A program made the translations under genes and the position numbers. Below, in pieces: positions 26,922 through 59,286 of a DNA stretch of 64,000 nt. How positions within the stretch are numbered: the stretch's first letter is position 1; the number at the start of each line of letters is the position of its first letter. The stretch is from Candidatus Iainarchaeum sp. (lineage in GTDB: Archaea > Iainarchaeota > Iainarchaeia > Iainarchaeales > CSSED10-239). Location of the stretch: the NCBI GenBank assembly GCA_037441475.1, contig JBBISB010000001.1:524946-588945 (forward strand), read 5' to 3'. Below the pieces are notes generated by a model that was not told where the DNA came from, made no database searches, and was given only the letters and a program-made list of their open reading frames with translations.

Positions 26922-28853
26922 ATGAGTGAAAAACTATATTCTCCATCAAAGGAGTTTCAAGAAAAGGCCTACATTAAATCCATGGAAGAGTATCAAAAGA
27001 TATATGAAGCATCCATAAAAGATCCAGAAAGTTTCTGGGCAGCAGCTGCAAAAGATATTACTTGGTTTAAACCTTTTACATCTGTCTTTGAGTGGGAGGA
27101 TAAAGAAAAATATCTTTACTCATGGTTTAAGAACGGAAAATTAAATGTCTCCTACAACTGTTTAGATAGACATTTAGAAAAGAATGCAGAAAAAATAGCT
27201 TTAATCTTTCAAGGGGAAGAAGAAAATAATGTAAAAAAATATACTTACAGACAATTACATTTAGAAGTTTCAAGATTTGCAAATGTTTTAAAAAAACATG
27301 GTATAAAGAAAGGAGATAAGGTATCTATATACACGCCAATGATACCTGAGTTTTTAATTTCTATTTTAGCATGTGCAAGGATAGGTGCAATCCACTCTGT
27401 TGTCTTTGCAGGTTACAGTACACAGACAACAAAAGAAAGAATTGAGTTTGCACAATCAAAGATGCTTATAACTGCTGATGGTTCTTTAAGATCTGGAAAG
27501 AAGATTAATTTCAAAGAAGAGGTTGACAAAGCAATCGCTGATATAAAAGGTATTGAAAAAGTAATCATTGTTAGAAATATAGGCGTTCCTTTAACTTTAA
27601 AAGAAAATGAATTTATTTATCAAGATGAAATTAAAATGAAAGATATCTTGGACGAATGTCCTGCTGAGGAAATGGACTCTGAAGATCCTTTATTTATTTT
27701 ATTTAATTCAGGCACTGTTGAAAAACCAAAAGGTACACTCCACACAAATGCTGGTTATTTAGTATACACAAAAGAGACTTTTAAGTACATATTTGATTAT
27801 CATGGTGATGAGGTTTATTGGTGTACAGCAGACATAGGGTGGATAACTGGTCACTCCTATTTAGTTTACGGTCCACTTGCAAATGCAGCAACAGTTTTAA
27901 TGTATGAAGGAATACCAACATTTCCAGATAATGAAACATACTGGAGAATTATTGAAAAACATAAAGTTAATATTTTTTATACAGCTCCAACAGTTATAAG
28001 GTCTTTAATGAGATATGGAATTGATCCTGTAAAAAAGCATAATCTCTCTTCCTTAAGATTATTAGGTTCTGTTGGAGAGCCTATAAACCATGAAGCATGG
28101 GTCTGGTATTATGAAAACATAGGCAATAGTAAATGCCCAATAGTTGATACCTGGTGGCAAACAGAGTCTGGTGGCTTTCTAATAGCACCATTTCCTGGCG
28201 CCTTTCCTTTAAAACCAGGCTTTGCAACAAAACCTTTCTTTGGTATTGATGCTGATGTCTTAAGAGAGGATGGTTCAAAAGCAGATGTTAATGAACCAGG
28301 TTCAGTGGTTATTAAAAAACCATGGCCTGGGATGATGCGAACAATATACGGTGAACATCAAAAGTATCTTGACATATATATCTCAAAATACCCTGGCTAT
28401 TACTTCTGTGGGGATAGAGGAAAGATTGATGAGAATGGTTATTTTTTCATAATTGGAAGAATGGATGATGTTATAAAAGTTTCAGGTCATCGTTTAGGTT
28501 CTGCAGAGATTGAGTCTGCCTTAGTTTCAAACAAGAATGTTGGTGAAGCGGCTGTTGTTCCTTTCCCTCATGAGATAAAGGGCCAAGCTCTTTATGCTTT
28601 TGTTATTTTAAGAGCAGGCATAAGCCCTAGTGAAGAACTTGTAAAAGAACTAAGAGAGCATGTTTCAAAAGAAATAGGCCCGATTGCAAAACCTGATAAG
28701 ATACAGTTTGTAGATGCTCTTCCAAAGACAAGTAGTGGTAAGATAATAAGAAGGATAGTACGTGCAATTGCTTATGATTCAGAGGACTATGGTGATCTTT
28801 CAACTTTGTTTAACCCAGAAGTTATTGATCAAATAAAAAGTAAAAAGATTTAA
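26922..28853 (+). CDS. acs: acetyl-CoA synthetase (AMP-forming)
   Basis: 'YSWFKNGKLNVSYNCLDRH', 'DIGWITGHSY', 'GRMDDVIKVSGHRLG', 'PKTSSGKIIRR'. Confidence 0.9.
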   Translation: MSEKLYSPSKEFQEKAYIKSMEEYQKIYEASIKDPESFWAAAAKDITWFKPFTSVFEWEDKEKYLYSWFKNGKLNVSYNCLDRHLEKNAEKIALIFQGEEENNVKKYTYRQLHLEVSRFANVLKKHGIKKGDKVSIYTPMIPEFLISILACARIGAIHSVVFAGYSTQTTKERIEFAQSKMLITADGSLRSGKKINFKEEVDKAIADIKGIEKVIIVRNIGVPLTLKENEFIYQDEIKMKDILDECPAEEMDSEDPLFILFNSGTVEKPKGTLHTNAGYLVYTKETFKYIFDYHGDEVYWCTADIGWITGHSYLVYGPLANAATVLMYEGIPTFPDNETYWRIIEKHKVNIFYTAPTVIRSLMRYGIDPVKKHNLSSLRLLGSVGEPINHEAWVWYYENIGNSKCPIVDTWWQTESGGFLIAPFPGAFPLKPGFATKPFFGIDADVLREDGSKADVNEPGSVVIKKPWPGMMRTIYGEHQKYLDIYISKYPGYYFCGDRGKIDENGYFFIIGRMDDVIKVSGHRLGSAEIESALVSNKNVGEAAVVPFPHEIKGQALYAFVILRAGISPSEELVKELREHVSKEIGPIAKPDKIQFVDALPKTSSGKIIRRIVRAIAYDSEDYGDLSTLFNPEVIDQIKSKKI

Positions 28854-28908: not shown

Positions 28909-30942
28909 TTACTTTAAAGGAAATGCTTCTTCCATTTTAAGAAGTTCTTTAAAGTCATTATCAATTTCTTCTTGTATCTTTTTAATTTCTTCTTTATTCT
29001 TTAAAACTTCCTTAAACTTAGTTTGCATTTTTAAAAATTCTTCAATTGGTTTTTTATTTGCAGGCTTATAGTTTACCTTATATTTTCCATCTTCAACTTC
29101 ATAAAGAGGCCAAAAGTTAGTTTCAGTTGCAAGTTTTGAAATATCAATGGTTAAATCTTCAGGGGCCTTCATGTTTGTAGGGCAAGCAGCGTAAACAATA
29201 ATAACAGCAGGTCCTTTCTTTTCAAAAGCCTTTCTAAACTTTTCATGCATGTCTAAAAGGTTTCCTGGGTTTGCAGTTGCAACATATGGTATTTTATGAG
29301 CAATAGCTATCTTTGCAAGATCTTTTTGAAATTCTTTTTTCTCTCCTGGTGTTGTAGTTGTTTGTGCTCCATAAGGTGTTGCAGAGGATCTTTGCGCTCC
29401 TGTATTGTGAACCACAATTCCATCAGCAATAAAGTTGTGTTCTCCATCAACTCTTAAATCTAAAGTTTGTTCAATTCCTCTAGGAATGATATTTTTTATT
29501 TTTCTTGTTTCAAAATATTCATTTCCAATAAAATAATTTTGATATTTGTATTGAGAAGGATATTTTCCAACATCCCATTTATCTTTTTTACTAAAACAGA
29601 TACTATAGTATTCTCCATTACTTAACATCTCTCTATACACTACAAAAGTTCCTTTTGGTTTTTTCTGAACAGTTATTTTTCCAACTCTGTAATCCATTGT
29701 TTGTAGTAATAATCTTAATCTCATAATTAAATCTTTACTTGCTGATAAATATCTACAACTATCTTTTTTCTTTTTATGAATATATCCATCAGACATTAAT
29801 AAACCTTTTACAAACTCTTCTTTTTGATCTATTGGTAAAGTAAAAACCCAAGAAGGTATTGTTTTATTTTTAGCACCTTGCATAAATCCTAAAGAATTAA
29901 TAAATTTTGAAATGTTTACAGAATTATAGTAGATGTAATATTTATCTTTAGATTTATTTTCTTGTCCAAATATTTTTTTATGTATTTTTAAAAGTTCTTT
30001 TCTCTCATTTGTATTTTCTGGAAGAGCAAATCCAATTTCTCCTCTATCTTCTCTAATCCATCCATCTCCAACATAAAATCCTAACCATAACATTAATTCT
30101 TTTGAAGATTCATTAGGAAGTTTAACATCATTAATAATGTTTACTTTATAATCTCCTTTTTTAGTAAGCTTTATTTTATTAAACTGATATGGTTTTCCTT
30201 TATCATATAATTTTCTCATAGTTACAATTTCATCATTTACTTTTAATTGAGAAACTGTTTTCCAAATTAGCTCGTTTTCTTTTCCTCTACCATTCCTTTT
30301 TAAAGTTAAGAAAGGGTGATTTGATGTTGCTTTTATATTTTGGTGTATAGTTTCTATTTCATATACTTTTTTCCTTCCGTTATCAAAAACACCTGTGCAT
30401 TCTTTTAGTACTGGCAAATGTTTTTTTTGATCAAAAGCCCAGACTTTTTCTCCTTTTATAATTTCTGTTATTTTTTTAAGACCTGTTTCTGTCATTATTA
30501 ATGAATCTGTTGATAAACAGTTTTGGTAACCTTCATTATCATAACAAACAAAAACAAAATCATGTCCTCTTTCAAGTGCTCCAGAAAGGCTCTGAAGTCC
30601 AATATCAAAGGCTCCACCATCACCAGCAAATGACATAAATTTAATTTCTTCCTTTATCTTTCCTTTCTTCTTTAAGGCCCTGTAAGCTGTTTCAACACCA
30701 GATATGGTTGCTGCAGAGTTTGCAAAAACAGAGTGGATGAATGGTTCGTTCCAAGATGTATAAGGGTAGATTGTTGTTGTAACTTCAGCACATGATGTGG
30801 CAGATGAAGTTATTATCTTCTTATCAGTTGCAGCATATGCTGTCCTTAAGATAATAGCTATAGGGCACCCAGGACAAGTACGGTGTCCAGGAATAATAGC
30901 TTTTCTTTCATTAATTCTATTTGCAAGTTCAATGTAGTTCAT
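28909..30942 (-). CDS. porB: pyruvate/2-oxoacid:ferredoxin oxidoreductase beta subunit (TPP-binding), intein-containing precursor
   Basis: Exteins: 'PGHRTCPGCP', 'FAGDGGAFDIG', 'VCYDNEGYQN' | intein | 'TGAQRSSATPYGA'. The precursor is 677 aa; after removing 372 aa it is 305 aa, a normal PorB size. Confidence 0.9.
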   Translation of the reverse strand: MNYIELANRINERKAIIPGHRTCPGCPIAIILRTAYAATDKKIITSSATSCAEVTTTIYPYTSWNEPFIHSVFANSAATISGVETAYRALKKKGKIKEEIKFMSFAGDGGAFDIGLQSLSGALERGHDFVFVCYDNEGYQNCLSTDSLIMTETGLKKITEIIKGEKVWAFDQKKHLPVLKECTGVFDNGRKKVYEIETIHQNIKATSNHPFLTLKRNGRGKENELIWKTVSQLKVNDEIVTMRKLYDKGKPYQFNKIKLTKKGDYKVNIINDVKLPNESSKELMLWLGFYVGDGWIREDRGEIGFALPENTNERKELLKIHKKIFGQENKSKDKYYIYYNSVNISKFINSLGFMQGAKNKTIPSWVFTLPIDQKEEFVKGLLMSDGYIHKKKKDSCRYLSASKDLIMRLRLLLQTMDYRVGKITVQKKPKGTFVVYREMLSNGEYYSICFSKKDKWDVGKYPSQYKYQNYFIGNEYFETRKIKNIIPRGIEQTLDLRVDGEHNFIADGIVVHNTGAQRSSATPYGAQTTTTPGEKKEFQKDLAKIAIAHKIPYVATANPGNLLDMHEKFRKAFEKKGPAVIIVYAACPTNMKAPEDLTIDISKLATETNFWPLYEVEDGKYKVNYKPANKKPIEEFLKMQTKFKEVLKNKEEIKKIQEEIDNDFKELLKMEEAFPLK
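29404..30519 (-). mobile_element. intein (372 aa) with LAGLIDADG homing-endonuclease domain inside porB
   Basis: Block A 'CLSTDSLIM' (Cys1), block B 'ATSNHPFLT', LAGLIDADG motifs 'LWLGFYVGDGWI' and 'FVKGLLMSDGYI', blocks F/G 'LDLRVDGEHNFIADGIVVHN' followed by the +1 Thr. Confidence 0.9.
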
Positions 30943-30953
30943 TTATTTTCACT

Positions 30954-32114
30954 TTATTTTTTAAGTCCTAAATATTTTTCTTTATTTGGTTTTCCTTTTA
31001 AAAAACCATTTAATAAATCTTCAATGTCTTTTTCAAAAATATCTCTTCCTCCAAGACCAAAGACATAAGAGGTAACATTTATTTTCTTATCATTATCACA
31101 AACAGAAAGTTTAATTTCTTTATAAAGTGGAGAAGAGGATCCAGGACTTTGAGCTCTATCAAGAACAATTACTTCTTTTGCTTTTTTTAAGGCCTTAAGA
31201 TACTCTGAATAAATAAAAGGTCTAAAAAGCACTGGTCTTAAAAGCCCAACCTTTTTTCCTTCTTTTCTAAGTTTGTCAATAACATTTTTAGTTGTCTGTG
31301 CAGTTGAGGACATTACAACAATAACAACCTCAGCATCTTTTAAAAAATAATCTTCATAAATTTCTATTTTCTTTCCAAAGGTTTTTTCAAACTCTTTTGA
31401 AACTTCTAAAAATTTCTTTTCAGCCTCTTCCATGGCTTTAAAAAGTTCAACCCTAATCTCAAAGAAGGTGTTTGGAAGTGAAAGGGCACCTATGGAGATT
31501 GGTTTTTTAGTATCTAAAAGATTATATGTTGTCTTATATTCTCCTACAAATTTCTTAACAACCTTATCTTCATACACTTCTAAATTCTCTAAGTTATGAG
31601 AGGTATAAAAACCATCAATACAAACCATGATAGGAAGAGATACACTTTCAGCAAACTTAAAAGCAAAGAGAGTCATGTCATATGCTTCTTGCGCACTTTC
31701 ACAAAAAACCATCATCCATCCTTGATCAAGACATGCCATGGCGTCTGAATGATCACAGTGTATGTTAATAGGTGCAGATACAGCTCTGTTTGCAACAGGC
31801 ATAACCACAGGAAGTCTTAAACCAGAAGTTACTGATAACATTTCATACATGTACATTAAACCTTGTGAGGCTGTTGCTGTAACGCTTCTTGCACCTGATG
31901 CTGCTGCACCTACAACTGCTGAAAGTGCAGAGTGTTCTGATTCAACTAAGATAAGCTCTGTTGTAACTTTTCCATTACTATGGTGGTTTGCATAACTTTC
32001 AATGATTGGTGTTTGTGGGGTTATAGGATACATTGCAAACACATCAACATCCACTTGTTTTATTGCATAGGAGATTGCTTCTCCTCCATTAAGTGCTATT
32101 TTTTTATTTTTCAT
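30954..32114 (-). CDS. porA: pyruvate/2-oxoacid:ferredoxin oxidoreductase alpha subunit
   Basis: 'GGEAISYAIKQVDVDVFAMYPITPQTPIIE' and size are typical of PorA. Confidence 0.9.
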   Translation of the reverse strand: MKNKKIALNGGEAISYAIKQVDVDVFAMYPITPQTPIIESYANHHSNGKVTTELILVESEHSALSAVVGAAASGARSVTATASQGLMYMYEMLSVTSGLRLPVVMPVANRAVSAPINIHCDHSDAMACLDQGWMMVFCESAQEAYDMTLFAFKFAESVSLPIMVCIDGFYTSHNLENLEVYEDKVVKKFVGEYKTTYNLLDTKKPISIGALSLPNTFFEIRVELFKAMEEAEKKFLEVSKEFEKTFGKKIEIYEDYFLKDAEVVIVVMSSTAQTTKNVIDKLRKEGKKVGLLRPVLFRPFIYSEYLKALKKAKEVIVLDRAQSPGSSSPLYKEIKLSVCDNDKKINVTSYVFGLGGRDIFEKDIEDLLNGFLKGKPNKEKYLGLKK

Positions 32115-32136
32115 TTTCTATTCACATTAAAATTAT

Positions 32137-32418
32137 TTACTCTTCTTCCATCTTTATACATTTAACAGGGCATACCTTCTCACAGATCCCACACCCTTTA
32201 CAAAACTCTAAGTCTGTTTCTGTTCTTACAAGCTTACCATCTTTATTCTTCTTAGCTAAGATACAGTTATCAGGACAATAAACATAGCATATCATACACT
32301 GCACACATCTCTTTGAGTCCCAAATAGGTTTTTTATGTCTCCAGTTTCCTGTACTATACTGTTTAGAGGTTCCTCCTTCTAGGACCCCACCAATAATTTT
32401 TTTATTTTTTTCACTCAT
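32137..32418 (-). CDS. porD: pyruvate/2-oxoacid:ferredoxin oxidoreductase delta subunit (2x[4Fe-4S])
   Basis: Two CxxCxxCxxxCP motifs: 'CVQCMICYVYCP' and 'CKGCGICEKVCP'. Confidence 0.9.
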   Translation of the reverse strand: MSEKNKKIIGGVLEGGTSKQYSTGNWRHKKPIWDSKRCVQCMICYVYCPDNCILAKKNKDGKLVRTETDLEFCKGCGICEKVCPVKCIKMEEE

Positions 32419-32424
32419 AACAAA

Positions 32425-32994
32425 TCATTTCTTATAAATTTTAATATCCTCAAACCCTCTTTTAAGGCAATTGAGGTTTGGTAAAATAAAATGTTCTTTT
32501 CTTTTTTTTGTAAATGTTTCTTTAATAACTTTTTCAACATCTTTATATCTTAAGATATCTATTTTCTTTTCTTTAAAAACCTTTAAAAGTCCGCCAATTA
32601 AAACAATGTTTGGGTTGTTTGCTTTTATTTCTTCTAAGGATATCTTAGTTCCATCTGTTGTATATATCTCTTTACTAATAATCTCTTTATTAATCTCTTT
32701 ATTAGTGTTTATAATAACAGGGGAGGTAAATCTCTTTATTTCCTCTAAAACATTAACTAAGTTCCCGTCAATAACTATAACAAAATCAGGTTTAATAACA
32801 GGCTCATGTGTCCTTATAGGGTTATTTGATAACCTTACAAATGCCTTAACAGGAGCTCCTCTTCTCTCAGGCCCATACTCAGGAAAGGCTTGAACATACC
32901 TACCTGCTTCAACACCAGCTTCAGCGATTATCTGAGCACAGGTTTTAGCACCTTGCCCTCCTCTTCCATAAACAGCAATACTTATTGTTTCCAT
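32425..32994 (-). CDS. porG: pyruvate/2-oxoacid:ferredoxin oxidoreductase gamma subunit
   Basis: 'IAVYGRGGQGAKTCAQIIAEA' and 'YGPERRGAPV'. Confidence 0.9.
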   Translation of the reverse strand: METISIAVYGRGGQGAKTCAQIIAEAGVEAGRYVQAFPEYGPERRGAPVKAFVRLSNNPIRTHEPVIKPDFVIVIDGNLVNVLEEIKRFTSPVIINTNKEINKEIISKEIYTTDGTKISLEEIKANNPNIVLIGGLLKVFKEKKIDILRYKDVEKVIKETFTKKRKEHFILPNLNCLKRGFEDIKIYKK

Positions 32995-35882: not shown

Positions 35883-36103
35883 TTTTTAATCACCTTTTTT
35901 CTTTCAAGAAAATCATTTAATTCTTCTAGAAGGTCAATCTCATTAATACCATACATTTCACAAACAGCACCAACTTCTAAAAAATCCATCTCCATTCTTG
36001 CCATAGGACAGGTTACACATGGAAAGCCATGTGCCATTAATATCTCAAAGATATCTGGTCTTTCTAAAAGTTCTTTTAGTTTTGTGTTTGAGGTTACCTT
36101 CAT
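35879..36103 (-). CDS. DUF1858-type small redox-disulfide protein
   Basis: 'ILMAHGFPCVTCPMARMEM' matches the hybrid-cluster-associated redox disulfide/DUF1858 pattern. ATGA overlaps on both sides. Confidence 0.6.
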   Translation of the reverse strand: MKVTSNTKLKELLERPDIFEILMAHGFPCVTCPMARMEMDFLEVGAVCEMYGINEIDLLEELNDFLERKKVIKK

Positions 36104-37233
36104 ATTTTCTCAAATTTTTTATTTATTAATATTATTTCTTTAACAATTTCTTTTGCTTTCTCAAGAGTTGTTTCTTTTCCTAAGGAAAGACGAAGCATTC
36201 CATTTTTTTTATTATGATCAACTTTCAAGGCTTTTAAAACATGGCTTTTCTCTTTATTGTTTGAAAGACATGCAGATCCAGTGGATACCTTAAAACCCTT
36301 TAAATCAAGCTGCATTAAAAGGGACTCAGGTTCAATCTCTTCAAAAAGCAAAGATACATTGTTTACTAGTCTTTTTTCAAGTGAGCCTAAAACCTTAACA
36401 TTTGGTGCTTTTTCTTTAATCTCCTTAATAATAAAATCTCTAATTTCTTTCATTCTTAAGAGATCTTCTTTCTTTAAAACCTTAACTGCTTCCTTAAAAC
36501 CAATTATTCCAGGAACATTTAAAGTTCCACTTCTCAAATTACTTTCATGCCCTCCTCCATGGAAGAGTGGAGTTATCTTAATATCTTTTCTAATGATTAA
36601 GGCTCCAATTCCTTTAGGTCCATACATCTTATGTGCATTTATTGTAATTAAATCAACATTATCTTTTATTAAATTAATTTCAGTTTTACAAAAACTTTGA
36701 CATGCATCTGTGTGGAAAAAAACTTTTCTTTCCTTACAAATTTTTCCAATTTCAAAAAGTGGTTGTAAAGTTCCTATCTCGTTGTTTCCATGTATGATGG
36801 AGACTAGAATAGTGTCCTTTCTAATCTTCTTCTTTAAGTCCTCTAAATCAATTACCCCTTCTTTATTGTTATTAACATACTCAATCTCAAAGCCCTTACT
36901 TGAAAGATACTTTGCAGTGTTTAAAACTGAGTCATGCTCTATCTTACTGATTATTATATGTCTTCCTTTCTTTTCATAACTTTCAGAAATTCCTTTAAGT
37001 GCTAAATTATTACTCTCAGTTCCTCCTGATGTAAATATCAAGAGATGTTCTTTACCATTTACTTTCTCTAAAATACTTTCCCTTGCTTTATTAACCTCTT
37101 CTAAAACCATTTCTCCAAAGGAATGCATGCTTGAGGTGTTTGCAAAAATTTCTGAAAAATAAGGTTTCATTTTTTCAAGAACTTTAGAGTCAACAGGGCA
37201 TGTCGCTGCATAATCAAAATAGTTTGTTTTCAT
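36100..37233 (-). CDS. cysteine desulfurase (NifS/IscS class V aminotransferase)
   Basis: PLP-Lys 'INAHKMYGPKGIG', 'HGGGHE', active-site 'STGSACLS'. Confidence 0.9.
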   Translation of the reverse strand: MKTNYFDYAATCPVDSKVLEKMKPYFSEIFANTSSMHSFGEMVLEEVNKARESILEKVNGKEHLLIFTSGGTESNNLALKGISESYEKKGRHIIISKIEHDSVLNTAKYLSSKGFEIEYVNNNKEGVIDLEDLKKKIRKDTILVSIIHGNNEIGTLQPLFEIGKICKERKVFFHTDACQSFCKTEINLIKDNVDLITINAHKMYGPKGIGALIIRKDIKITPLFHGGGHESNLRSGTLNVPGIIGFKEAVKVLKKEDLLRMKEIRDFIIKEIKEKAPNVKVLGSLEKRLVNNVSLLFEEIEPESLLMQLDLKGFKVSTGSACLSNNKEKSHVLKALKVDHNKKNGMLRLSLGKETTLEKAKEIVKEIILINKKFEKI

Positions 37234-39257: not shown

Positions 39258-41408
39258 TTAAACAGAAAGAAGATTTTTTAAAAGATCTCTTTCTTCTCTA
39301 TACACACTATCCTTATACTCTAATTGTTCTTTATTAATAATTATTGCATTGATATTTGAATTTACAAAAGACTTAATATCAGCAGCTGTATTTTTAGAGT
39401 TAATCTCTGCGATTCTCATAATCTTGTTTTCTTTACAAACCTTAATAACTTCTTTAACCTTTGTAAAATCAATATCTTCAAGGTTTAAGGTAAGATATTC
39501 AATTCCTCTTGAAAGATACTCTAAGATAAGTCCTTCCTTTAAAGATTCAACTATTACTCCAAGCCTTGAGTCTGTGTTTTCTTTAATAGGGGTAATTTCG
39601 TCTGCTGATTTAATATTCTCTAAAAGAATATTTACCTTTCCTCCCATCTCAATAATTGCTTCAAGTTCATAGCTTGATACATTTTCTGTCATTAAGTTTC
39701 TTGTATGTGTGTTTATTTTATAAAATATTTCCTTGCCTTCAAATATTTTTGTAATTTCTAGAAGTTTATTTTTTATGTTAGGCACCAATAGGTTAAGATT
39801 TTCAAGCATGCTTCCTTTCTCATAACTTGTAAACAGTGAGTCTATTGTTAAGACAATACCATCTATATCAGGAAGATTTATTTTTTTAATTTCATCTAAA
39901 CCATTTATTCTAATATATGTTTTTGTAATTGTTTTAGGGTAAATTGGTTCCCTGTTTTGTGCTCTTTCAATAACAACTTCATTCTCTCTCTTTGTTTCAA
40001 CAACTTGTTTTACCTTAGGAGGCGCCACATACCCTGAAACACTGTACACTTTACCGTTAAAACCATTAACTAAAACAGATTGTCCATCTCTTAATATTTC
40101 TGTAGCTCTTTCTGTATGCACTACACAAGGAACATCATATTTTTTAGCAATCAAGGCAGCATGACAGATAGCACTTCCAGCATCAGTTACAATCCCTTTT
40201 GCTTTTCTTAAAACTTGTGACATTTCAAGAGTTGTCATTTTAGTAACAAAGATTGTGTTTTCATCAATATTTTTAAGATCTTCTTTATCATTAACTATTT
40301 TTACTGTACCAATGGAGATTCCACTAGACACTCCAATTCCTTCAAGAAGTAAACTTTTTTTATATGTGTCTAGTTTTTCTTGATAGGTGGTTGCATCTAT
40401 TTTCTTTTTTTGTTTTATTTTCTTTAAATCAGGGTTAATTGGATTAACACTAACTATCATTATCTCTTCATTAGCATCTATTACCCAGTTAACTTCTAAA
40501 GCTGTGCCGTAGATAAGTTCAAGCTTGTTTGCTATCTGTGCAAGTTCATTTAAGTCTCTTTGATCTAACTTTTGTTTATCATTATCTTTTTGATCAACTG
40601 GTGCTTTGCTGGTTTTTCCAACAATTCTTTTAAGCATCCATTCTTGATTTGATTTTGTTTTTTTAATAATAGAGAATGTTTTCTTATGTATCTCATAATG
40701 ATCAGGAGTTACTTCTTTAATTAAGCTTTTTCCTCCAAACCCATATATTGCTTCTATTATTGCAACATCTTTCGAATCTTCTTTTGAGGTTATCATTATT
40801 CCTGATTTTTTACCAGGTATCATTTTTTGAATAATTATTGATAAATGTATTTTATTTTCTTCAAAACCTTTTCTATATTTATATTCTAAAATTTCAGGAG
40901 AGTAAAGATCTGCCCAGCATTCCTTTACGCTATTAAGTATCTCATCTCTTCCTTTAATATTTAAAAAACCAGTATGTCTTTCAATAAAGTCAAGTTCCTT
41001 TAAAGGGTATTCTTCACTTGACACTGAGGCTCTAATAGCTACAAACTCATCCACTTTTGTGTTCATGAAACCAACTTTAGCTTCTCCTATCTTAATATAC
41101 ATTTTTAGAACTTCTGAAGCAAAGTCTTCATCTATTTTCTGTTTTAAGAAAAGCTCTCTTATTTGGTTTGATTTATTTTGAATATCTTCTTTCTTTGTAT
41201 AATCTATTGTTTCTAGAATTTGGTTTATTTTTTCTCTAAGTTGGTTTTTTTGTATAAAGTTAAAGAAGTTTTTATAGTTTATGACAAAACCTCTAGGAAG
41301 CGGTAGGTTTGCTTTTGCAATTTCTGAGAGTATATGTGCTTTATAACCCACTTCTAGGACCTCATGGTCTGATATTTCTTTTATCCATTTAATATTTGTT
41401 TCAAGCAT
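39258..41408 (-). CDS. phosphoenolpyruvate synthase-like (pyruvate, water dikinase family) protein with divergent C-terminal domain
   Basis: N-terminal PEP/pyruvate-binding ATP-grasp ('VGYKAHILSEIAKANLPLPRGFVI') and phospho-His swivel domain ('GIVTDAGSAICHAALIAKKYDVPCVV'). The C-terminal TIM-barrel region lacks the usual GSNDLTQ-type motif. Confidence 0.7.
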   Translation of the reverse strand: MLETNIKWIKEISDHEVLEVGYKAHILSEIAKANLPLPRGFVINYKNFFNFIQKNQLREKINQILETIDYTKKEDIQNKSNQIRELFLKQKIDEDFASEVLKMYIKIGEAKVGFMNTKVDEFVAIRASVSSEEYPLKELDFIERHTGFLNIKGRDEILNSVKECWADLYSPEILEYKYRKGFEENKIHLSIIIQKMIPGKKSGIMITSKEDSKDVAIIEAIYGFGGKSLIKEVTPDHYEIHKKTFSIIKKTKSNQEWMLKRIVGKTSKAPVDQKDNDKQKLDQRDLNELAQIANKLELIYGTALEVNWVIDANEEIMIVSVNPINPDLKKIKQKKKIDATTYQEKLDTYKKSLLLEGIGVSSGISIGTVKIVNDKEDLKNIDENTIFVTKMTTLEMSQVLRKAKGIVTDAGSAICHAALIAKKYDVPCVVHTERATEILRDGQSVLVNGFNGKVYSVSGYVAPPKVKQVVETKRENEVVIERAQNREPIYPKTITKTYIRINGLDEIKKINLPDIDGIVLTIDSLFTSYEKGSMLENLNLLVPNIKNKLLEITKIFEGKEIFYKINTHTRNLMTENVSSYELEAIIEMGGKVNILLENIKSADEITPIKENTDSRLGVIVESLKEGLILEYLSRGIEYLTLNLEDIDFTKVKEVIKVCKENKIMRIAEINSKNTAADIKSFVNSNINAIIINKEQLEYKDSVYREERDLLKNLLSV

Positions 41409-43098: not shown

Positions 43099-43869
43099 AT
43101 GATAAATTACTTACTTACCATTAAAAACCTAAACGTTAGTGTTGAGGATAAAAAAATATTAAATAACTTTAATATTGATATTAAAAACCAAGAGATACAT
43201 GCAATCATGGGTCCAAACGGTTCAGGAAAATCCACTCTAGCCTATACTCTAATGGGTCACCCTAAATACAATGTAATTTCAGGTAAAATCACTTTTAATA
43301 AAAAGAACTTATTTTCTCTTTCTGTTGATAAAAGAACAAAGGAAGGGATATTTTTATCTTTTCAAACACCTTTAGAGATATCTGGTCTTAATTATTTTTC
43401 TTTTTTAAAAAATTCTTTCAATTCCATGCATAAAGAAAAATTATCTCCTCTAAAGTTTAACACCTTAGTTAAAGAAAAAATGAAACTATTAAATATGCCA
43501 GAAAACTTTTTATCTCGTGACCTAAACTCAGGTTTTTCAGGTGGAGAAAAGAAGAGAGCAGAGATTTTACAACTTATCTTAATGAACCCTAAGCTCGCTA
43601 TCTTAGATGAAACAGATTCAGGGCTTGACATTGATTCCCTAAAATTAGTATGTAGTTCAGTTAATAATTTAAAGAAAGAAAATAAAGAATTTTCTGCAAT
43701 AGTTATCACCCACTATAAAAAAATACTTGACTTTTTAAAACCTGATTTCGTGCATGTAATGTATGATGGCAGAATAATAAAAAGTGGAGATAAGTCTTTT
43801 GCAACATACATAGAAAAAAATGGTTTTACAAAAATAATTGATGATTATAAAAAAAAGAATAATTTATGA
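43099..43869 (+). CDS. sufC: Fe-S cluster assembly ATPase SufC
   Basis: Walker A 'GPNGSGKST', ABC signature 'FSGGEKKR', Walker B 'LAILDETDSGLD', 'ITHY'. Confidence 0.9.
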   Translation: MINYLLTIKNLNVSVEDKKILNNFNIDIKNQEIHAIMGPNGSGKSTLAYTLMGHPKYNVISGKITFNKKNLFSLSVDKRTKEGIFLSFQTPLEISGLNYFSFLKNSFNSMHKEKLSPLKFNTLVKEKMKLLNMPENFLSRDLNSGFSGGEKKRAEILQLILMNPKLAILDETDSGLDIDSLKLVCSSVNNLKKENKEFSAIVITHYKKILDFLKPDFVHVMYDGRIIKSGDKSFATYIEKNGFTKIIDDYKKKNNL

Positions 43870-45311
43870 ACAGAAATAAACTTGATGGAAAAGCAAAACT
43901 TTCATCTTTAAAAAAAGCTAAAAAAGCTACAGAAATTGAAAAATATAATTTTTCCTATTCAACAAAGGATTATAAAATCAAGTTTAATAAAGGTCTTGAT
44001 ACTAATGTTATTAGAAAAATATCTGCTATTAAAAGAGAACCTAAATGGATGCTTGACTTTCGTCTTAAGGCCTATAATGTCTTTAAAGAAAAAAAACTTC
44101 CTACCTGGGGAATAATGCCATTAAATGAAATTGATTTTAAAAACATAACCTACTTTGCATCAGTTGGAAGTGATGAAAAAAAAAGCTGGAAGGATGTTCC
44201 GAAAAATGTTAAAAAAACATTTGAAAGGATTGGTGTTCCAAAAGCAGAAAGAGATTTTCTTGCAGGTGTAGGTGCACAGTATGATTCAGAGGTAATCTAC
44301 CACAAAACAAAAAAAGAATTTGAAGATAAGGGTGTAGTTTTTCTATCAATGGATGAAGGCTTAAAACAATACCCTGACTTGGTTAAAAAATATTTTGGAA
44401 CTGTTGTGCCAATTGAAGATAATAAATTTTCTGCTCTTAACTCTGCTGTTTGGTCAGGAGGTTCCTTTGTGTATGTTCCAGAGGGCGTAAAGGTTGATAC
44501 TCCTCTTCAAGCATACTTTAGAATTAATTCTGCTAATATGGGACAGTTTGAAAGAACATTGATTATCGCTGATAAAAACAGCAAAATCCATTATGTTGAA
44601 GGATGTACAGCCCCTAGGTTTTCCACTCAATCTCTTCATGCAGCAGTTGTAGAGGTTATAGCCTTAGAGGGTGCTAGTATAAGGTATACCACCATACAAA
44701 ACTGGGCAAACAACATCTATAACCTTGTTACAAAAAGAGCATTTGCTTACAAAGATGCAACCGTTGAATGGGTGGATGGTAACCTAGGCTCAAAATTAAC
44801 AATGAAGTATCCTGCTATTCACTTAAAAGGAGAAAATGCAAGAGGAGAGGTTCTATCTATTGCCATAGCTTCTAAAAACCAAAAGCAAGATGCAGGTGCA
44901 AAGATTATTCATGAGGCAAATAACACCACAGGAACAATAATTTCAAAATCAATATCAAAGGATGGTGGAGAATCATCTTACAGAGGTCTTGTTAAGATAA
45001 ACAAGGGTTTAAAGAATATTAAATCAAATGTAAGATGTGATGCCATATTAATTGATTCAAAAAGTAAAACTGATACATATCCTGTAATAATTGTAAACGA
45101 ACCAACAGCAGAAGTTTCTCATGAAGCAACTGTTGGAAGGATAGGGGAAGAGCAGTTATTTTATTTAATGTCAAGAGGTATTGAAGAATCAAAGGCAATC
45201 ACCTTAATTATTTTAGGTTTTATAAGTGAGTTTTCAAAACAACTTCCCTTGGAGTATGCAGTTGAGCTTAATAGGTTAATTGAGATGGAGTTTGAAAATT
45301 CAGTTGGTTAG
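43866..45311 (+). CDS. sufB: Fe-S cluster assembly protein SufB
   Basis: 481 aa with 'HYVEGCTAP', 'HEATVGRIGEEQLFYLMSRGI'. ATGA overlap with sufC. Confidence 0.9.
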   Translation: MNRNKLDGKAKLSSLKKAKKATEIEKYNFSYSTKDYKIKFNKGLDTNVIRKISAIKREPKWMLDFRLKAYNVFKEKKLPTWGIMPLNEIDFKNITYFASVGSDEKKSWKDVPKNVKKTFERIGVPKAERDFLAGVGAQYDSEVIYHKTKKEFEDKGVVFLSMDEGLKQYPDLVKKYFGTVVPIEDNKFSALNSAVWSGGSFVYVPEGVKVDTPLQAYFRINSANMGQFERTLIIADKNSKIHYVEGCTAPRFSTQSLHAAVVEVIALEGASIRYTTIQNWANNIYNLVTKRAFAYKDATVEWVDGNLGSKLTMKYPAIHLKGENARGEVLSIAIASKNQKQDAGAKIIHEANNTTGTIISKSISKDGGESSYRGLVKINKGLKNIKSNVRCDAILIDSKSKTDTYPVIIVNEPTAEVSHEATVGRIGEEQLFYLMSRGIEESKAITLIILGFISEFSKQLPLEYAVELNRLIEMEFENSVG

Positions 45312-45321
45312 GTTTTTTAAT

Positions 45322-46200
45322 ATGCAAAGAATAGATCTTAAAAGTTATAAAGTAAAAGAAGTATCTAAATCTTTAGCTGTAAGCTTAAATAAATTTAATC
45401 TTTCTTCAAACAAAAATACTGCTGTCTTTCTTTTTAACGGCTTCCTTCCCTCAGATATACTTTTAGATATCTCTTCAACTTCTAAAAAAATAATTTTAAT
45501 TTTTTCAAACATTAAAAATAAAAACTTTCTTGAAGTCTCTGACCTTTCAAAAATAAAAGAAAAAGAAATTATCTATATTTTTAAAAACTGCGCTGAACTC
45601 TTTTATTTAAAGGACTTTAAGGGAAAAAATCTTTCCTTTAACAATAAGGTTTTTTTAGATAATTCCACTATTAATTTTTCAAATGTTTTCTTTGATGTAA
45701 CAAACCTTAATTTCTTACAGGAAAACAATTTATATAAAGACTCACAAATAAACCAAAACGATGTTTTACTTCTCTCTTCAAACCAGAAAAATAAAATAAA
45801 CGTCATTAACAACCATCTATACAAGGAAACAGTTTCAAACACCATAATAAAGAATGTTTTAAAAGAAAATTCTTTTTCAAGATATGACGGGATGATAAAC
45901 ATCATAGGTAAGGGAGATTTTTCAAAAGCCTATCTTGAAACAAACACTATGCTTCTTTCAAAAGATGCAACATCTATAAGCATACCAATGCTTGAGATTG
46001 TTCCAAAGAACATAAAGGCAACTCATGCTGCAACTGTTGAACATGTAACAGAAGAGCAACTTTTCTATCTTTCCTCAAGAGCTTTATCAAGAGAAGAGGC
46101 TTATAACCTAATGGTTTCTTCTTTCTTAAAAGCAAATCTTGAAAGTTTACCTGATACTTTTAAAGAGCACATAAATAAAAAAATAAAAGATAAGTTATGA
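45322..46200 (+). CDS. sufD: SufD-like Fe-S assembly protein
   Basis: C-terminal 'ATHAATVEHVTEEQLFYLSSRALS' is paralogous to the SufB tail, and the gene sits in the suf operon position. ATG 45322 is preferred over the track start at 45280. Confidence 0.7.
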   Translation: MQRIDLKSYKVKEVSKSLAVSLNKFNLSSNKNTAVFLFNGFLPSDILLDISSTSKKIILIFSNIKNKNFLEVSDLSKIKEKEIIYIFKNCAELFYLKDFKGKNLSFNNKVFLDNSTINFSNVFFDVTNLNFLQENNLYKDSQINQNDVLLLSSNQKNKINVINNHLYKETVSNTIIKNVLKENSFSRYDGMINIIGKGDFSKAYLETNTMLLSKDATSISIPMLEIVPKNIKATHAATVEHVTEEQLFYLSSRALSREEAYNLMVSSFLKANLESLPDTFKEHINKKIKDKL

Positions 46201-46610
46201 GTGATGACTACATTCCCTCTCAAATAATCTTAGACTACTATTCAGACCCTGTTAACTATGGCCCTTTATCAAAACCTGATATAAAGATAACTGGGCATAA
46301 CAAAGGATGTACTGACACAGTTACCATTTATCTTCAGCTTAATAAAGATAAAATAAAAAAAATAACTTTCCAACATTCAGGTTGTGTTATCTCAAAAGCA
46401 GGTGGATGTATAGCCACAGAGGTTGTTATGGGTAAAACAATAAAAGAAGTTCTTTTGCTAAAACCAGAAACTATTATTGAAAATCTAGGTGGGGTCTTAA
46501 AAACCAGAGTAAGTTGTGCTTATCTTACTATAAACTTAATAAAAAAAGCACTTCTTGATTTTTCTAAAAATAAAAAAACTTTTCCTGTAACCTACGTCTT
46601 TGAAATTTAA
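46197..46610 (+). CDS. SufU/IscU-family Fe-S scaffold/sulfur acceptor
   Basis: 'ILDYYSDPVNYG', 'GHNKGCTD', 'HSGCVISKAGG', 'RVSCAYLTINLIKKA' (three conserved Cys). Confidence 0.75.
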   Translation: MSDDYIPSQIILDYYSDPVNYGPLSKPDIKITGHNKGCTDTVTIYLQLNKDKIKKITFQHSGCVISKAGGCIATEVVMGKTIKEVLLLKPETIIENLGGVLKTRVSCAYLTINLIKKALLDFSKNKKTFPVTYVFEI

Positions 46611-47506
46611 TTTTTAACTCTCCTTAAGTTAAGGTTTTCTGCATACTTTGCTTTTCCAAAGTTCTTTCCAAGTTTTTCGTTTCTAGATTTATCTCTATAA
46701 TGTATAACTCTATCCTCTCTTTCTTGTAAACTTTCTTGAGAGATAATCCCTGGTCCACCTACACATCCCCCTTTACAAAAAAGCATATCTAAAAACCTAA
46801 TTTCTTTATTTTCCTTAAACTTTAATATTGCTTTGTCAATTTCTTGTATACCATCAGCAATAACAATCTCTTCTTGTTTTAATATCTGTCTATTGTTAAT
46901 AGTTTCAGCAACAGCTCCAGAAAGAGGATATATCTTTGTATAGTCATTATAGAATTTATCAAAACTTTTACTTTCATTTTCTTTCTTTGTATAGTATCCA
47001 TTTTTTTTAGCATACAAAAACATGTCATTAACTTCTTTAAAGGTAAGTGCAAAGTCAACCTCTTTATTTTCCTTAGCCTCTTGTTTCTTTGAAAAGCATG
47101 GTCCTACAAAAGCAATTAAGTGGTTAGGATACTTTTCTTTCATAAACCTTGCCATAACCACCATTGGTGAGGCTATATCCATAATATCTTTTTTAATCTC
47201 TGGATATTTATTTTCAATATACTTAACAACACTAGGACAGTTGCCACAGATATGTTGTTTTTTTTTATTTTTTGTGATTTGTGCATGTATCTCTTTGTTT
47301 ATTATTTTTGCAGAGTAGGTAAGTTCAACTATTTTGTTAAACCCTATCCTTCTAAGCTCAACTATAACTTTAGGATACTTAAAGTCCACAACAAAGCTTG
47401 GTGCAAGAAGACAAATAACTTTCTTTTTATTAATTATTTTTAATGTTTCTAAAAGTTCATTATTAATTTCCATTTTTTTCTTCACATCCTTATTTAATAA
47501 AATCAA
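46607..47506 (-). CDS. [FeFe]-hydrogenase H-cluster domain protein (stand-alone, ~300 aa)
   Basis: Collinear with the HydA catalytic domain: 'ICLLAPSFVV', 'LRRIGFNKIVELTYSAKI', 'CGNCPSVVKYIENKYPE' (L1-like), 'VGPCFSKKQEA' (L2), 'MLFCKGGCVGGPG' (L3). No N-terminal ferredoxin domain. The start may be Met12 (47473). Confidence 0.75.
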   Translation of the reverse strand: MILLNKDVKKKMEINNELLETLKIINKKKVICLLAPSFVVDFKYPKVIVELRRIGFNKIVELTYSAKIINKEIHAQITKNKKKQHICGNCPSVVKYIENKYPEIKKDIMDIASPMVVMARFMKEKYPNHLIAFVGPCFSKKQEAKENKEVDFALTFKEVNDMFLYAKKNGYYTKKENESKSFDKFYNDYTKIYPLSGAVAETINNRQILKQEEIVIADGIQEIDKAILKFKENKEIRFLDMLFCKGGCVGGPGIISQESLQEREDRVIHYRDKSRNEKLGKNFGKAKYAENLNLRRVKN

Positions 47507-48518
47507 TCACTTTACTTTTTTTATTTTTCAAAAGAATAATTCTTGATTCTTTCTGTTCATTATGTATCTTAAACAATTTAGATCTTTTTTCAATTTCTTT
47601 TGAAAACTCCACAACATCATTATGTGTTGGCATATTTTCAGCAGTTAAGTTATCTCTTGATGAACCTAAATGCATGTATGATTTTATCTCAAGATAATCT
47701 GTATTACTTCTTTCAAACATTTCAATAAACTTATCTAAATACTCTAAGGAGTCATTAAGCCCATTAATCAAAGTAAACCTAACCACTTTTCTACATTTAA
47801 GGCTTGGATAAATATCAATAGTTTTGTTCAGTCTTTGCCAACTATCTTTAATCTTCGTCTTATTTATTTTATGATGCATCTTTTCATCACATGCAACAAT
47901 AGATAAATAAAGTTGTGTAGGTAGAGATTTATTTTTATTCATCTCTAAGAGCCTATCTGGTTCCATTCCATTAGTTACAATAAAGATACTTCTCATTTCT
48001 TTTTTCTTCTTTAAGTAAAGCACCATCTCTCCAAGTTTAGGATATATGGTAGGTTCACCTGCAAGCGAGATTGCAACATGCGTTGGAACAATTGCTTCAT
48101 CATACTTTTTCTTTAAAACCTTAGGGTTTCCCTTAAAGCCTGTAAGTAACTTTATTCTTTCTTCAAAAAGTCCATCAATAATTTCTTTAGCATCATCAAG
48201 TTGTTTTTCATCCATCTTCCATTCTTTCATGTACTCTGCAGGTCTCCAGCAAAAACTACAGTTAAGGTGACAGTTAACAACAGTAGGTGTTATTTGTGCA
48301 CATCTATGACAATCAACATTATAAAATTTTTCTTTATAGCAAACTCCTTGACCTCTAAATGCCTTTTTATTCCATCCACAAATCTCCACTGCCGAGTGTT
48401 TACCATAAATTCCATAATGCTTATGTCTTAAATCTTTAAAAATTTCTTCTTTTGTTTTATTCTCTTTTGTCATAGAAATATTATTTTTAATAGTCTTTTT
48501 AAACATTTTTGTTTTCAA
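47490..48518 (-). CDS. taw1: 4-demethylwyosine synthase Taw1/TYW1 (radical SAM)
   Basis: 'HSAVEICGWNKKAFRGQGVCYKEKFY', radical-SAM cluster 'CHLNCSFCWRP', 'SLAGEPTIYP'. Confidence 0.8.
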   Translation of the reverse strand: MKTKMFKKTIKNNISMTKENKTKEEIFKDLRHKHYGIYGKHSAVEICGWNKKAFRGQGVCYKEKFYNVDCHRCAQITPTVVNCHLNCSFCWRPAEYMKEWKMDEKQLDDAKEIIDGLFEERIKLLTGFKGNPKVLKKKYDEAIVPTHVAISLAGEPTIYPKLGEMVLYLKKKKEMRSIFIVTNGMEPDRLLEMNKNKSLPTQLYLSIVACDEKMHHKINKTKIKDSWQRLNKTIDIYPSLKCRKVVRFTLINGLNDSLEYLDKFIEMFERSNTDYLEIKSYMHLGSSRDNLTAENMPTHNDVVEFSKEIEKRSKLFKIHNEQKESRIILLKNKKSKVIDFIK

Positions 48519-48551: not shown

Positions 48552-50123
48552 TTGGCAGCTAAAAAAACAAAAAGTAAATTTTCAACAAAAGCTCCTAAGA
48601 AAATAGAAGTTGTTTTTGAAGATTCAAACAAAGTTATTAAAAAAGAAAAACCTGTTTTTAATAAAAAATCTAACAAACAAAAAGTTTCTTTTGAAAAATC
48701 TCCACCAAAGAGTGTTTCTAAAGCACATAAACATAATGAAGAACATAAACACCATGAAACTCATAAACATGTTACTAAAGAAACTAAAAAAAATAAAACT
48801 AAAGATTACATAATTATTGGTATTTTAGCTTTATTAATAATAGGTATAGTTGTCATCGCCTTTTTAGTTCCAGTGGACTTTAATAAAGATGATGTGGTAA
48901 TAGATAAAAATGCTCCTGTAATTGACAAAAATCAAAATTTAGATTTAAATATAGAAAACTTTGAAAAAAGATCATTAGCAGTTACAATGAACATCTTAAA
49001 AGACATGAGAGAGTATCAAAAGAATATCTTAGAAGAAAACTATGAAAGCTTATCTATAAATAAAGAAGAGATGGATACTTGTCTTTTAGAAAATAATTTC
49101 CTTTTAGAAGATACAAATTTATTTGATTATCCTAAAGTTAAATTAATTCAGAATGACTTTATGGAAGCTCAAGAGAGATTTGTTTTATCTACACCAACCA
49201 TGTATGTTAATGGTTATTATTTAACAGGTGTTAAGGATTACAATACTTTTACAAACTTTATAGATGATGTAAAAGACTCAGAGAGTTTAACCTTAGATTA
49301 CAATAACAAATCTTTCAGTTATACTAATGATTCTTTAAAAGTATATTATGTTTACGACAAGGAATCAGAGTTAATAAAAGAATCAAACTTAGCATTCATT
49401 GACTATTTAAAAACATCTGAACTTTTAATATCAAATGTCAATTCCGTTTTTACAACCATCTTTGATATTAACAATATAGAGTATGTTCAATATAATACAG
49501 AGAAAGGAAAAGAAATTCTACAAACAATTGATGCAGAAGCTTTACCAGCAATCTATATTTTAGGAGATGTTTCTTCCCTTGATTTCAATGGACAAGATAA
49601 CACCGAGATTTTCAATGTCATTTTTGAAAAAGAAACTATAAACAACGGTTATATATTTAAGAAAGAAGTTTTACCTCAATTAATAATAGGTAGTTCTTTT
49701 GATGGCGTTTATAGAGTCTTGGACTATAAAACTTTAGTAAAAGAAGATGACAAGGTTTTAGGTTCTCTTGATGCAGAAACAACAATAATTCTTTTCACAG
49801 ACTATGATTGTCCTTTCTGTAGACAACTTGAAACAGATACCTTAACAGATATTTTTTCTGAAAATTACATGGATACAGGAAAGGCAAACCTTGTAATCAA
49901 ACCAATGGTTACAAACGATATCTTTTCAATCTTCCCTATACTTTTCTTAAAATGTTCTGAAAATCAAGATGCTTCTCTTGCAGTTCATAAAAAAATATTT
50001 GAACTTAATCCTGTTATTGGGGTTCAACCAGTTTATGATCTTGTAAGTTTAAAGTATGCTGAGGAAATGGCAGCTTTAGAGGTAGAATATTCTTTGATAA
50101 TGTCTTCAATGGAAGGAAATTAA
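48552..50123 (+). CDS. membrane-anchored protein with C-terminal DsbA/thioredoxin-like domain and Lys/His-rich N-terminal tail
   Basis: TTG start with SD aaaggtgatta, tail 'KAHKHNEEHKHHETHKH', one TM helix ('YIIIGILALLIIGIVVIAFLV'), C-terminal 'ILFTDYDCPFCRQLE' (CxxC). Confidence 0.6.
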   Translation: MAAKKTKSKFSTKAPKKIEVVFEDSNKVIKKEKPVFNKKSNKQKVSFEKSPPKSVSKAHKHNEEHKHHETHKHVTKETKKNKTKDYIIIGILALLIIGIVVIAFLVPVDFNKDDVVIDKNAPVIDKNQNLDLNIENFEKRSLAVTMNILKDMREYQKNILEENYESLSINKEEMDTCLLENNFLLEDTNLFDYPKVKLIQNDFMEAQERFVLSTPTMYVNGYYLTGVKDYNTFTNFIDDVKDSESLTLDYNNKSFSYTNDSLKVYYVYDKESELIKESNLAFIDYLKTSELLISNVNSVFTTIFDINNIEYVQYNTEKGKEILQTIDAEALPAIYILGDVSSLDFNGQDNTEIFNVIFEKETINNGYIFKKEVLPQLIIGSSFDGVYRVLDYKTLVKEDDKVLGSLDAETTIILFTDYDCPFCRQLETDTLTDIFSENYMDTGKANLVIKPMVTNDIFSIFPILFLKCSENQDASLAVHKKIFELNPVIGVQPVYDLVSLKYAEEMAALEVEYSLIMSSMEGN

Positions 50124-59163: not shown

Positions 59164-59286
59164 ATCTTTTTACCCTCTTTTAAATTTCTTGGTTTTACTT
59201 AAAATAAAAAACCGTCCAATATTATTAGTGACTATAACTATTTATAAATATATTTGTTTATAAATCTTTTCCTCCAATATATATTT

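Follow-up and report, generated by a model that had tools for sequence, protein, structure and literature searches.

The group E [FeFe]-hydrogenases were defined for DPANN archaea as a class with a mean length of 286 residues, with hosts among the Iainarchaeota, Micrarchaeota and Nanoarchaeota, and were placed as the sister of group C (Greening et al., Cell 2024, PMC11216029). The type of the group is Fm, the purified ultraminimal enzyme of Ca. Forterrea multitransposorum, which contains 4.2 ± 0.4 Fe per protein, displays the Fourier-transform infrared signatures of an H-cluster once loaded with synthetic [2Fe]adt in a well-defined pocket, evolves H2, and is bidirectional in protein-film electrochemistry with a bias to proton reduction (PMC11216029). 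Here a 64,000-nucleotide stretch of Candidatus Iainarchaeum sp. is analysed (assembly GCA_037441475.1, contig JBBISB010000001.1, positions 524,946 to 588,945), hereafter referred to as the window. A first-pass annotation, made from the letters of the stretch, had singled out a stand-alone H-cluster domain in it as a candidate for an ultraminimal [FeFe]-hydrogenase, encoded here by a DPANN archaeon, and had mentioned a recent report of such minimal forms, which can be identified as the 2024 study. The protein, designated HydA, is very likely a group E ultraminimal [FeFe]-hydrogenase, with H2 activity attributed to it by analogy with Fm.

Relationship to the Forterrea enzyme

The closest public protein to HydA (P0002) is 84% identical over 95% of the length and is encoded in CP045477.1, the closed 839,632-bp chromosome of Ca. 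Forterrea multitransposorum; judging from the organism and genome, P0002 is almost certainly the expressed Fm. The window and the Forterrea chromosome also share a gene order, which runs from arginyl-tRNA synthetase (ArgRS) through a thioredoxin-like gene, TYW1, HydA and the convergent SufU-D-B-C genes to RadA and a pyruvate phosphate dikinase (PPDK). The nearest HydA loci belong to metagenome-assembled genomes (MAGs) that carry the labels Forterrea, Iainarchaeum or Diapherotrites, and the window itself contains the archaeal genes MCM, RadA and TYW1. In a bootstrapped neighbour-joining tree of the group E family, with CpI of Clostridium pasteurianum as the only outgroup, the window HydA forms a clade of 100% bootstrap support with the Forterrea protein and three other MAG sequences. 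Taken together, the identity, the synteny and the clade make HydA a species-level orthologue of the characterised enzyme, and bear out the candidate assignment. The class and an orthologue nearly identical to HydA had both been described in 2024, biochemistry included, and HydA therefore does not represent a new kind of enzyme.

The open reading frame (ORF) of 299 codons described at first (46607..47506, minus strand) is indeed present, but the TTG at 47506 is not its start, and the true protein has 288 residues. Translation almost certainly begins at the ATG at 47473, because the sequence MEINxEL is the N-terminus both in the database gene call and in all hydA orthologues, because a Shine-Dalgarno-like element, GGATGTGA, lies 9-16 nt 5′ of this ATG, and because the TTG extension lies within the upstream gene, TYW1, at its 3′ end. 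With a dN/dS of 0.085 against the Forterrea orthologue and 0.06-0.10 across orthologues, hydA is under strong purifying selection and the reading frame is not a chance one.

A profile search and a structure prediction, two of the checks that had been suggested, both identify the domain as an H-domain. The Pfam family Fe_hyd_lg_C is matched end to end (positions 1-245 of the 245-position profile, E=5.1e-41, with 141 bits where the cut-off is 22) with the cysteines in register, and it is the single Pfam domain of the protein. In NCBIfam, a set without a group E model, the one match of HydA is to the C-terminal half of the model for group B1 and stays below the threshold. When the PDB was searched by sequence, with HydA alone as well as with a 16-member family profile, [FeFe]-hydrogenases were the only matches. 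An AlphaFold2 (AF2) model built on the family alignment has a pLDDT of 87.5 and a pTM of 0.87, and all 50 matches listed by Foldseek against the PDB are [FeFe]-hydrogenase H-domains with query-normalised TM-scores (TMq) of 0.67-0.76, the top 44 of them at 0.70-0.76; these include CbA5H, TkHydA, TmHydA and CpI (TMq 0.71-0.76), as well as DdH. Finally, HydA contains six cysteines in total and no ferredoxin-type cysteine motif, and therefore has no N-terminal F-cluster domain, as had been noted, and only a single cubane. A stand-alone H-domain of about 286 residues without accessory Fe-S motifs or extra domains is what distinguishes group E, and HydA, with 288 residues, fits this description.

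H-cluster residues, proton path and maturation

The residues of HydA were mapped onto CpI by three alignments, namely a phmmer alignment to TkHydA, an alignment of the family profile to CpI and a MAFFT alignment of 79 family members with CpI 245-537; the conservation counts given below and in Table 1 refer to the 79 members in the latter. The four motifs that the first-pass annotation quoted can all be found in HydA, and the alignments place them in register with the H-domain of hydrogenases. Its cluster-binding cysteines C90, C137, C244 and C248 become C79, C126, C233 and C237 in the 288-residue numbering, align to C300, C355, C499 and C503 of CpI, and are found in 79 of the 79 members. The region LLAPSFVVDF near the N-terminus aligns to the "IAPA" of TmHydA and supplies the equivalents of A230-P231-S232 of CpI. 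The residues that line the [2Fe]H pocket, corresponding to K358, the APS triplet, S323-P324 and F417 of CpI, are all present in HydA, and the full invariance of the pocket argues that the [2Fe] cofactor is really made in vivo.

The proton path, on the other hand, is altered throughout. The remark in the first-pass annotation that the proton-relay cysteine has been replaced in the sequence G-N-C-P is correct: CpI C299 corresponds to Asn78, and the position is occupied by N, V, P, A or T across the 79 members and never by Cys. Of the further relay residues, E279 corresponds to I62, S319 to M98 and E282 to Q65, and R286 is deleted. Additional changes are found at M353, M497 and Q325, which are replaced by G124, L231 and a Met, respectively. 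The canonical relay C299/E279/S319/E282/R286 is thus lacking in HydA; its presence is not needed for group E membership, and its loss is typical of groups C-E. Differences in the proton-transferring residues of group E have been described before (PMC11216029). As all relay residues of CpI are replaced, protons would have to take a non-canonical route to the cofactor of HydA. The residue that aligns with E279 (window codon 47288-47290, minus strand) is a Tyr in 74 of the 79 members, and Ile occurs only in the window protein and four members of the Forterrea clade. This widely kept Tyr may belong to another path for protons, one that the Forterrea clade would then lack.

The window contains no hydE, hydF or hydG, in agreement with the initial observation. 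A CxxxCxxC motif search of the 64 kb found neither HydE nor HydG, the sole protein with the motif being TYW1, and no HydF-like GTPase was found among the P-loop ORFs of the window: four of the five encode MCM, an AAA_14 ATPase, RadA and SufC, and the fifth (59254-59859), which carries no annotation, has 201 residues and is half the length of HydF. At the 78 family loci available for neighbourhood comparison, no further radical-SAM candidate is present up to 10 kb from hydA. HydEFG are likewise absent from the closed Forterrea genome, so that maturation there is implied to take another route (PMC11216029), and the literature searched contained no follow-up on the maturation of group E.

Several of these observations weigh against a hydrogenase function. 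The maturases HydE, HydF and HydG are missing from the window and from Forterrea, the 78 loci offer no further radical-SAM candidate nearby, and the [2Fe] subcluster is thus a putative one in vivo; M353 and M497 are replaced together with the whole of the canonical proton pathway, as is seen in sensory and low-activity hydrogenases; and the 64-kb window holds no stand-alone ferredoxin gene, its only 2x[4Fe-4S] motif being that of PorD. The strongest of the alternatives takes the first of these points literally and proposes that HydA never obtains [2Fe] in vivo and is a plain [4Fe-4S] redox protein, which, by analogy, could for example act as a low-potential electron relay to the adjacent radical-SAM enzyme or handle Fe-S clusters in the way of Nar1/NARF. 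The lack of maturase genes in the window and in the closed Forterrea chromosome is what such a protein would lead one to expect, as is the loss of C299, M353 and M497, but the equivalents of K358, APS, S323-P324 and C503, whose only known role is to hold [2Fe], are invariant across archaea and bacteria as tabulated, and the 84%-identical Fm takes up [2Fe]adt and catalyses H2 turnover. This alternative appears unlikely, and the evidence from gene neighbourhoods, which bears on it as well, is considered below.

Gene neighbourhoods and range of the family

The genes around hydA in the window are listed in Table 1. The TYW1 gene immediately upstream is probably co-transcribed with hydA; its product also aligns to Pyrococcus horikoshii TYW1 (2YX0) with 261 bits. 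The possibility that it is a HydG or HydE in disguise was considered and rejected, as its score exceeds the equivalog cut-off for TYW1 and its alignment with solved TYW1 structures spans the full length. Divergent from the TYW1-hydA pair lies a gene for a 523-residue protein (48552-50123, plus strand) that has an N-terminus rich in Lys and His, a predicted membrane helix and, at its C-terminus, a DsbA-like Thioredoxin_4 domain, and this position is kept in 16-18 Iainarchaeota-type loci. On the other side, the stop codons of hydA and sufU overlap (46607-46610) at the end of a complete sufCBD-sufU operon, as originally described. The SUF adjacency is real at the window locus but is specific to the Forterrea clade: as a trait of the family it was rejected, since it is found only in loci with a HydA identity of at least 76%.

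Table 1. Features of the hydA locus in the window and HydA residues aligned to CpI
Feature	Position	Strand	Remarks
hydA, very likely a group E ultraminimal [FeFe]-hydrogenase	46607..47473	-	288 aa; Fe_hyd_lg_C, Forterrea HydA 84% identity, AF2 model
LLAPSFVVDF, residues 22-31	47381..47410	-	A24-P25-S26 = CpI A230-P231-S232, contacts CN ligand of [2Fe]H; 77-78/79
Motif L1, HICGNCPSV..., residues 74-92	47198..47254	-	C79 = CpI C300, [4Fe-4S]H ligand
Motif L2, VGPCFSKKQEA, residues 123-133	47075..47107	-	C126 = C355, K129 = K358, E132 = E361; P, C, K and E 79/79
Motif L3, FLDMLFCKGGCVGGPG, residues 227-242	46748..46795	-	C233 = C499, C237 = C503; both Cys 79/79
HydA C79 = CpI C300			[4Fe-4S]H ligand; 79/79
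HydA P80 = CpI P301			pocket; 79/79
HydA S102-P103 = CpI S323-P324			pocket; 79/79
HydA P125-C126 = CpI P354-C355			C355 = [4Fe-4S]H ligand; 79/79
HydA K129 = CpI K358			contacts CN ligand; 79/79
HydA E132 = CpI E361			pocket; 79/79
HydA Y182 = CpI F417			pocket; Y in 74, F in 5 of 79
HydA C233 = CpI C499			[4Fe-4S]H ligand; 79/79
HydA C237 = CpI C503			bridges to [2Fe]H; 79/79
TYW1, radical-SAM 4-demethylwyosine synthase	47490..48518	-	TIGR03972, 345 bits vs cut-off 318; 16-nt spacer upstream of hydA
sufC-sufB-sufD-sufU, Fe-S assembly operon	43099..46610	+	convergent with hydA
PPDK/PEP-synthase-like gene	39258-41408		between POR and hydA
NifS/IscS-type cysteine desulfurase	36100..37233	-	Aminotran_5, E=1e-75; between POR and hydA
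porG-porD-porA-porB, pyruvate:ferredoxin oxidoreductase (POR)	28909..32994	-	Pfam POR, Fer4, POR_N/PFOR_II, TPP_enzyme_C
AMP-forming acetyl-CoA synthetase (Acs)	26922..28853	+	Pfam ACAS_N, AMP-binding, AMP-binding_C; adjoins POR

The remaining genes of the locus belong to fermentation and Fe-S assembly. The distance from hydA to the pyruvate:ferredoxin oxidoreductase (POR), first estimated at about 14 kb, measures 13.6 kb. The cysteine desulfurase, which reaches 413 bits against the NifS model TIGR03402 and stays under the equivalog cut-off, is a sulfur donor for Fe-S assembly. The Acs, POR and PPDK-like genes, all within 20 kb of hydA, resemble a compact pyruvate-to-acetate fermentation module, a role assigned here following PMC11216029. 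The porB gene (28909-30942, minus strand) is split by an intein of 372 residues (29404-30519, minus strand) with the Pfam domains Intein_splicing and LAGLIDADG_3, the latter a homing endonuclease; the insertion site is the conserved motif GYQN|TGAQ, with the junctions Cys1 (CLSTDS...) and ...VVHN|T.

These genes allow a mechanism to be proposed for HydA as a group E hydrogenase. The protein would be an H-domain-only monomer with one [4Fe-4S] cubane on Cys79, Cys126, Cys233 and Cys237, the last of which would bridge to [2Fe]. Ferredoxin reduced by POR would dock on the solvent-exposed [4Fe-4S]H and hand its electrons over directly, and the [2Fe]H site, the [2Fe] subcluster of which would be made without HydE, HydF or HydG, would reduce protons to H2. 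The release of H2 would regenerate oxidised ferredoxin and so allow a genome-reduced fermenter to turn pyruvate into acetate, in keeping with the position of Acs next to POR. The presence of POR, Acs, PPDK, SUF and the cysteine desulfurase in the window is in line with such a role; the electron donor of HydA, the direction in which it works in the cell, its proton path and its mode of maturation are inferred. The same ferredoxin-to-H2 role has been proposed before (PMC11216029).

A scan of species-representative genomes located the family at 80 loci, comprising Iainarchaeota-type genomes, MAGs of Nanoarchaeota/Woesearchaeota/Pacearchaeota and at least as many bacteria of the Candidate Phyla Radiation (CPR). 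The CPR hosts include Absconditabacterales/SR1 and Gracilibacteria as well as MAGs that bear the labels "Peribacteria", Saccharibacteria and Staskawiczbacteria. Genetic code 25 is required to translate many of the CPR sequences, and a Trp appears at the invariant Gly of CxxGCxGGPG in database translations (P0074, P0082, P0100, P0106 and P0110) because UGA, which codes for Gly in this code, has been read as Trp. In the neighbour-joining tree the Iainarchaeota-type and code-25 CPR sequences form a clade with 88% bootstrap support and the Nanoarchaeota-type sequences fall outside it, so that, with the CPR sequences included, the archaeal members of group E are not monophyletic in this simple tree. 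Since the family is abundant in CPR bacteria as well, a DPANN origin, though HydA has one, does not define the group E clade. The sequences suggest an exchange of group E hydA between ultrasmall archaea (DPANN) and ultrasmall bacteria (CPR); neither CPR members of group E nor its non-monophyly is described in the literature searched. In a library of 1.84 billion proteins, there are 2,094 matching representatives at E≤1e-3, of which 39 remain at E≤1e-30, and the best ~30 matches are stand-alone proteins of 250-310 residues. One record (P0145) is a protein of 4,122 residues with 14 separate H-domain-like stretches and 33% identity to HydA, which could be either a giant tandem-repeat hydrogenase-like protein or an artefact of assembly or gene calling. 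In public records such as P0091 and P0057, homologues of the stand-alone kind go under the name "NtrC family signal transduction histidine kinase" or that of a sensor kinase, probably by carry-over of annotation from the multidomain sensory hydrogenases of group C.

The neighbours of hydA at the 78 loci were compared after greedy gene selection, since antisense shadow ORFs swamped an unbiased clustering. In 17 of the 18 Iainarchaeota-type loci TYW1 is located directly upstream of hydA on the same strand, with a gap of -4 to 45 nt, and the arrangement persists in loci whose HydA identity is as low as about 50%; in Iainarchaeota, ArgRS and the thioredoxin-like gene stay beside hydA too. Among the code-25 CPR loci, a RimO/MiaB-family methylthiotransferase and/or a HemW-like radical-SAM gene lies at most two genes from hydA in 28 of 35, in at least two gene orders. 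The Nanoarchaeota-type loci have no radical-SAM neighbours (0/25), and hydA is accompanied there by RNase Z, an Sm-like protein and a protein of ~560 residues. Across all loci 70 genes encode a CxxxCxxC motif, and 68 of them are these TYW1, RimO/MiaB-family or HemW-like neighbours. POR beside hydA has been reported for Nanoarchaeota and Micrarchaeota (PMC11216029); with the POR subunits of the window as queries, no such adjacency was found except for distant matches in two loci (L027 and L037). Radical-SAM adjacency is the only recurrent contextual signal around group E hydA, and it is not mentioned in the 2024 paper (PMC11216029). The signal may reflect lineage synteny, as the Iainarchaeota and CPR proteins form sister clades and, in Iainarchaeota, other flanking genes are kept too.

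For a HydA that carries only [4Fe-4S], the operon-like pairing with TYW1, the RimO/HemW-like genes of the CPR loci and the convergent SUF operon of the window would each provide a plausible context, but the SUF genes adjoin hydA in one clade only and the Nanoarchaeota-type members do without radical-SAM neighbours altogether. A related, speculative and rather improbable idea is that the group E hydrogenase is functionally coupled to the adjacent radical-SAM enzymes (TYW1, RimO/MiaB-type and HemW-like), either as a redox partner or, less likely, as the beneficiary of a maturation stand-in. Redox partnership would be the simplest version because the three unrelated radical-SAM families share only a [4Fe-4S] cluster that is reduced at very low potential; the one-cluster HydA would then supply electrons, or act as a valve for them, in a way linked to H2 or to ferredoxin, where a genome is too reduced to retain a dedicated flavodoxin or ferredoxin-reductase system. 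In the less likely version, the radical-SAM neighbour together with SUF would replace HydG or HydE in a maturase-free synthesis of the H-cluster. The one line of evidence for the coupling is gene adjacency in two lineages whose HydA clades are sisters.

It is very unlikely that HydA instead takes up H2 from hosts or neighbours to feed low-potential electrons to ferredoxin or radical-SAM clusters. Fm works in both directions in protein-film electrochemistry, the adjacent radical-SAM enzymes need a low-potential one-electron donor, and the host is inferred to be a symbiont in H2-containing groundwater, all of which would suit uptake; yet Fm is clearly biased to proton reduction, the POR and Acs of the window point to a need for electron disposal, and by established thermodynamics radical-SAM clusters are poorly reduced by the H2/H+ couple when the partial pressure of H2 is low. 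A role as an H2 sensor like the hydrogenases of groups C and D, to which the sensory architecture of the nearest multidomain relatives, the placement of group E as sister to group C (PMC11216029), the non-conserved proton pathway and the "NtrC family sensor kinase" names of some database entries might point, is highly improbable, as HydA with its one Pfam domain has no output, PAS or partner signalling domain, the 78 loci show no conserved signalling genes nearby, and Fm favours H+ reduction, unlike TmHydS.

Comparison with known hydrogenases

The window locus provides a second relative, on a long contig of 671.5 kb, of an enzyme known from one characterised organism, with the same substitutions, the same neighbourhood and no HydEFG within 64 kb, and thereby sharpens the question of H-cluster assembly in the absence of HydEFG. 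In many DPANN symbionts with reduced genomes a group E protein is the only H2 enzyme, and the pairing of hydA with TYW1 or with RimO/HemW-like genes names candidates for its maturation or coupling. The interest that remains lies in HydEFG-independent maturation, the non-canonical proton path, and the associations with radical-SAM genes and with CPR bacteria.

The nearest system is Fm itself. The two proteins are of near-equal length (286 and 288 residues for Fm and HydA, respectively), consist of a single H-domain, lie in the same six-gene neighbourhood without maturase genes nearby, and carry identical substitutions, with N for C299, I for E279, G for M353 and L for M497. They differ in that they come from different species, with about 16% amino-acid divergence and a dS of ~1.1, and the biochemistry is that of Fm alone.

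The closest multidomain relatives are the sensory hydrogenases of group C, such as HydS of Thermotoga maritima, with ~30-35% identity over the H-domain. TmHydS is biased to H2 oxidation, whereas Fm is biased to H2 evolution (PMC11216029). The group C proteins combine an N-terminal 2x[4Fe-4S] Fer4 domain, the H-domain and a C-terminal PF04060 Fe-S motif with PAS, sigma-54 activator or MCP outputs, of which HydA has none. The canonical proton pathway is conserved in neither group, according to the literature for group C and to the alignments presented here for group E.

A different kind of relative is represented by Nar1/NARF, which have the Fe_hyd_lg_C fold, keep the cluster-binding cysteines and work without HydEFG. 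Nar1 is a eukaryotic protein of about 450-500 residues with an extra N-terminal cluster motif. By description, HydA is set apart from Nar1/NARF by its archaeal host, by the lack of an N-terminal cysteine motif and by an orthologue, Fm, that binds [2Fe]adt.

In domain content, finally, HydA resembles CrHydA1, the M1-type group A enzyme of Chlamydomonas reinhardtii, since both consist of the H-domain only and lack accessory clusters. CrHydA1, formerly the smallest characterised [FeFe]-hydrogenase, takes its electrons straight from ferredoxin, has ~450 residues, keeps the proton relay C169/E141/S189/E144/R148 and depends on HydEFG. The HydA family profile matches it only weakly (E ~1e-13), and HydA is ~160 residues shorter, the alignment gaps indicating condensed loops. 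With ~33 kDa, one cubane and the [2Fe] site, the group E enzymes are the smallest hydrogenases known, and their small size makes them attractive minimal scaffolds for biohydrogen catalysis.

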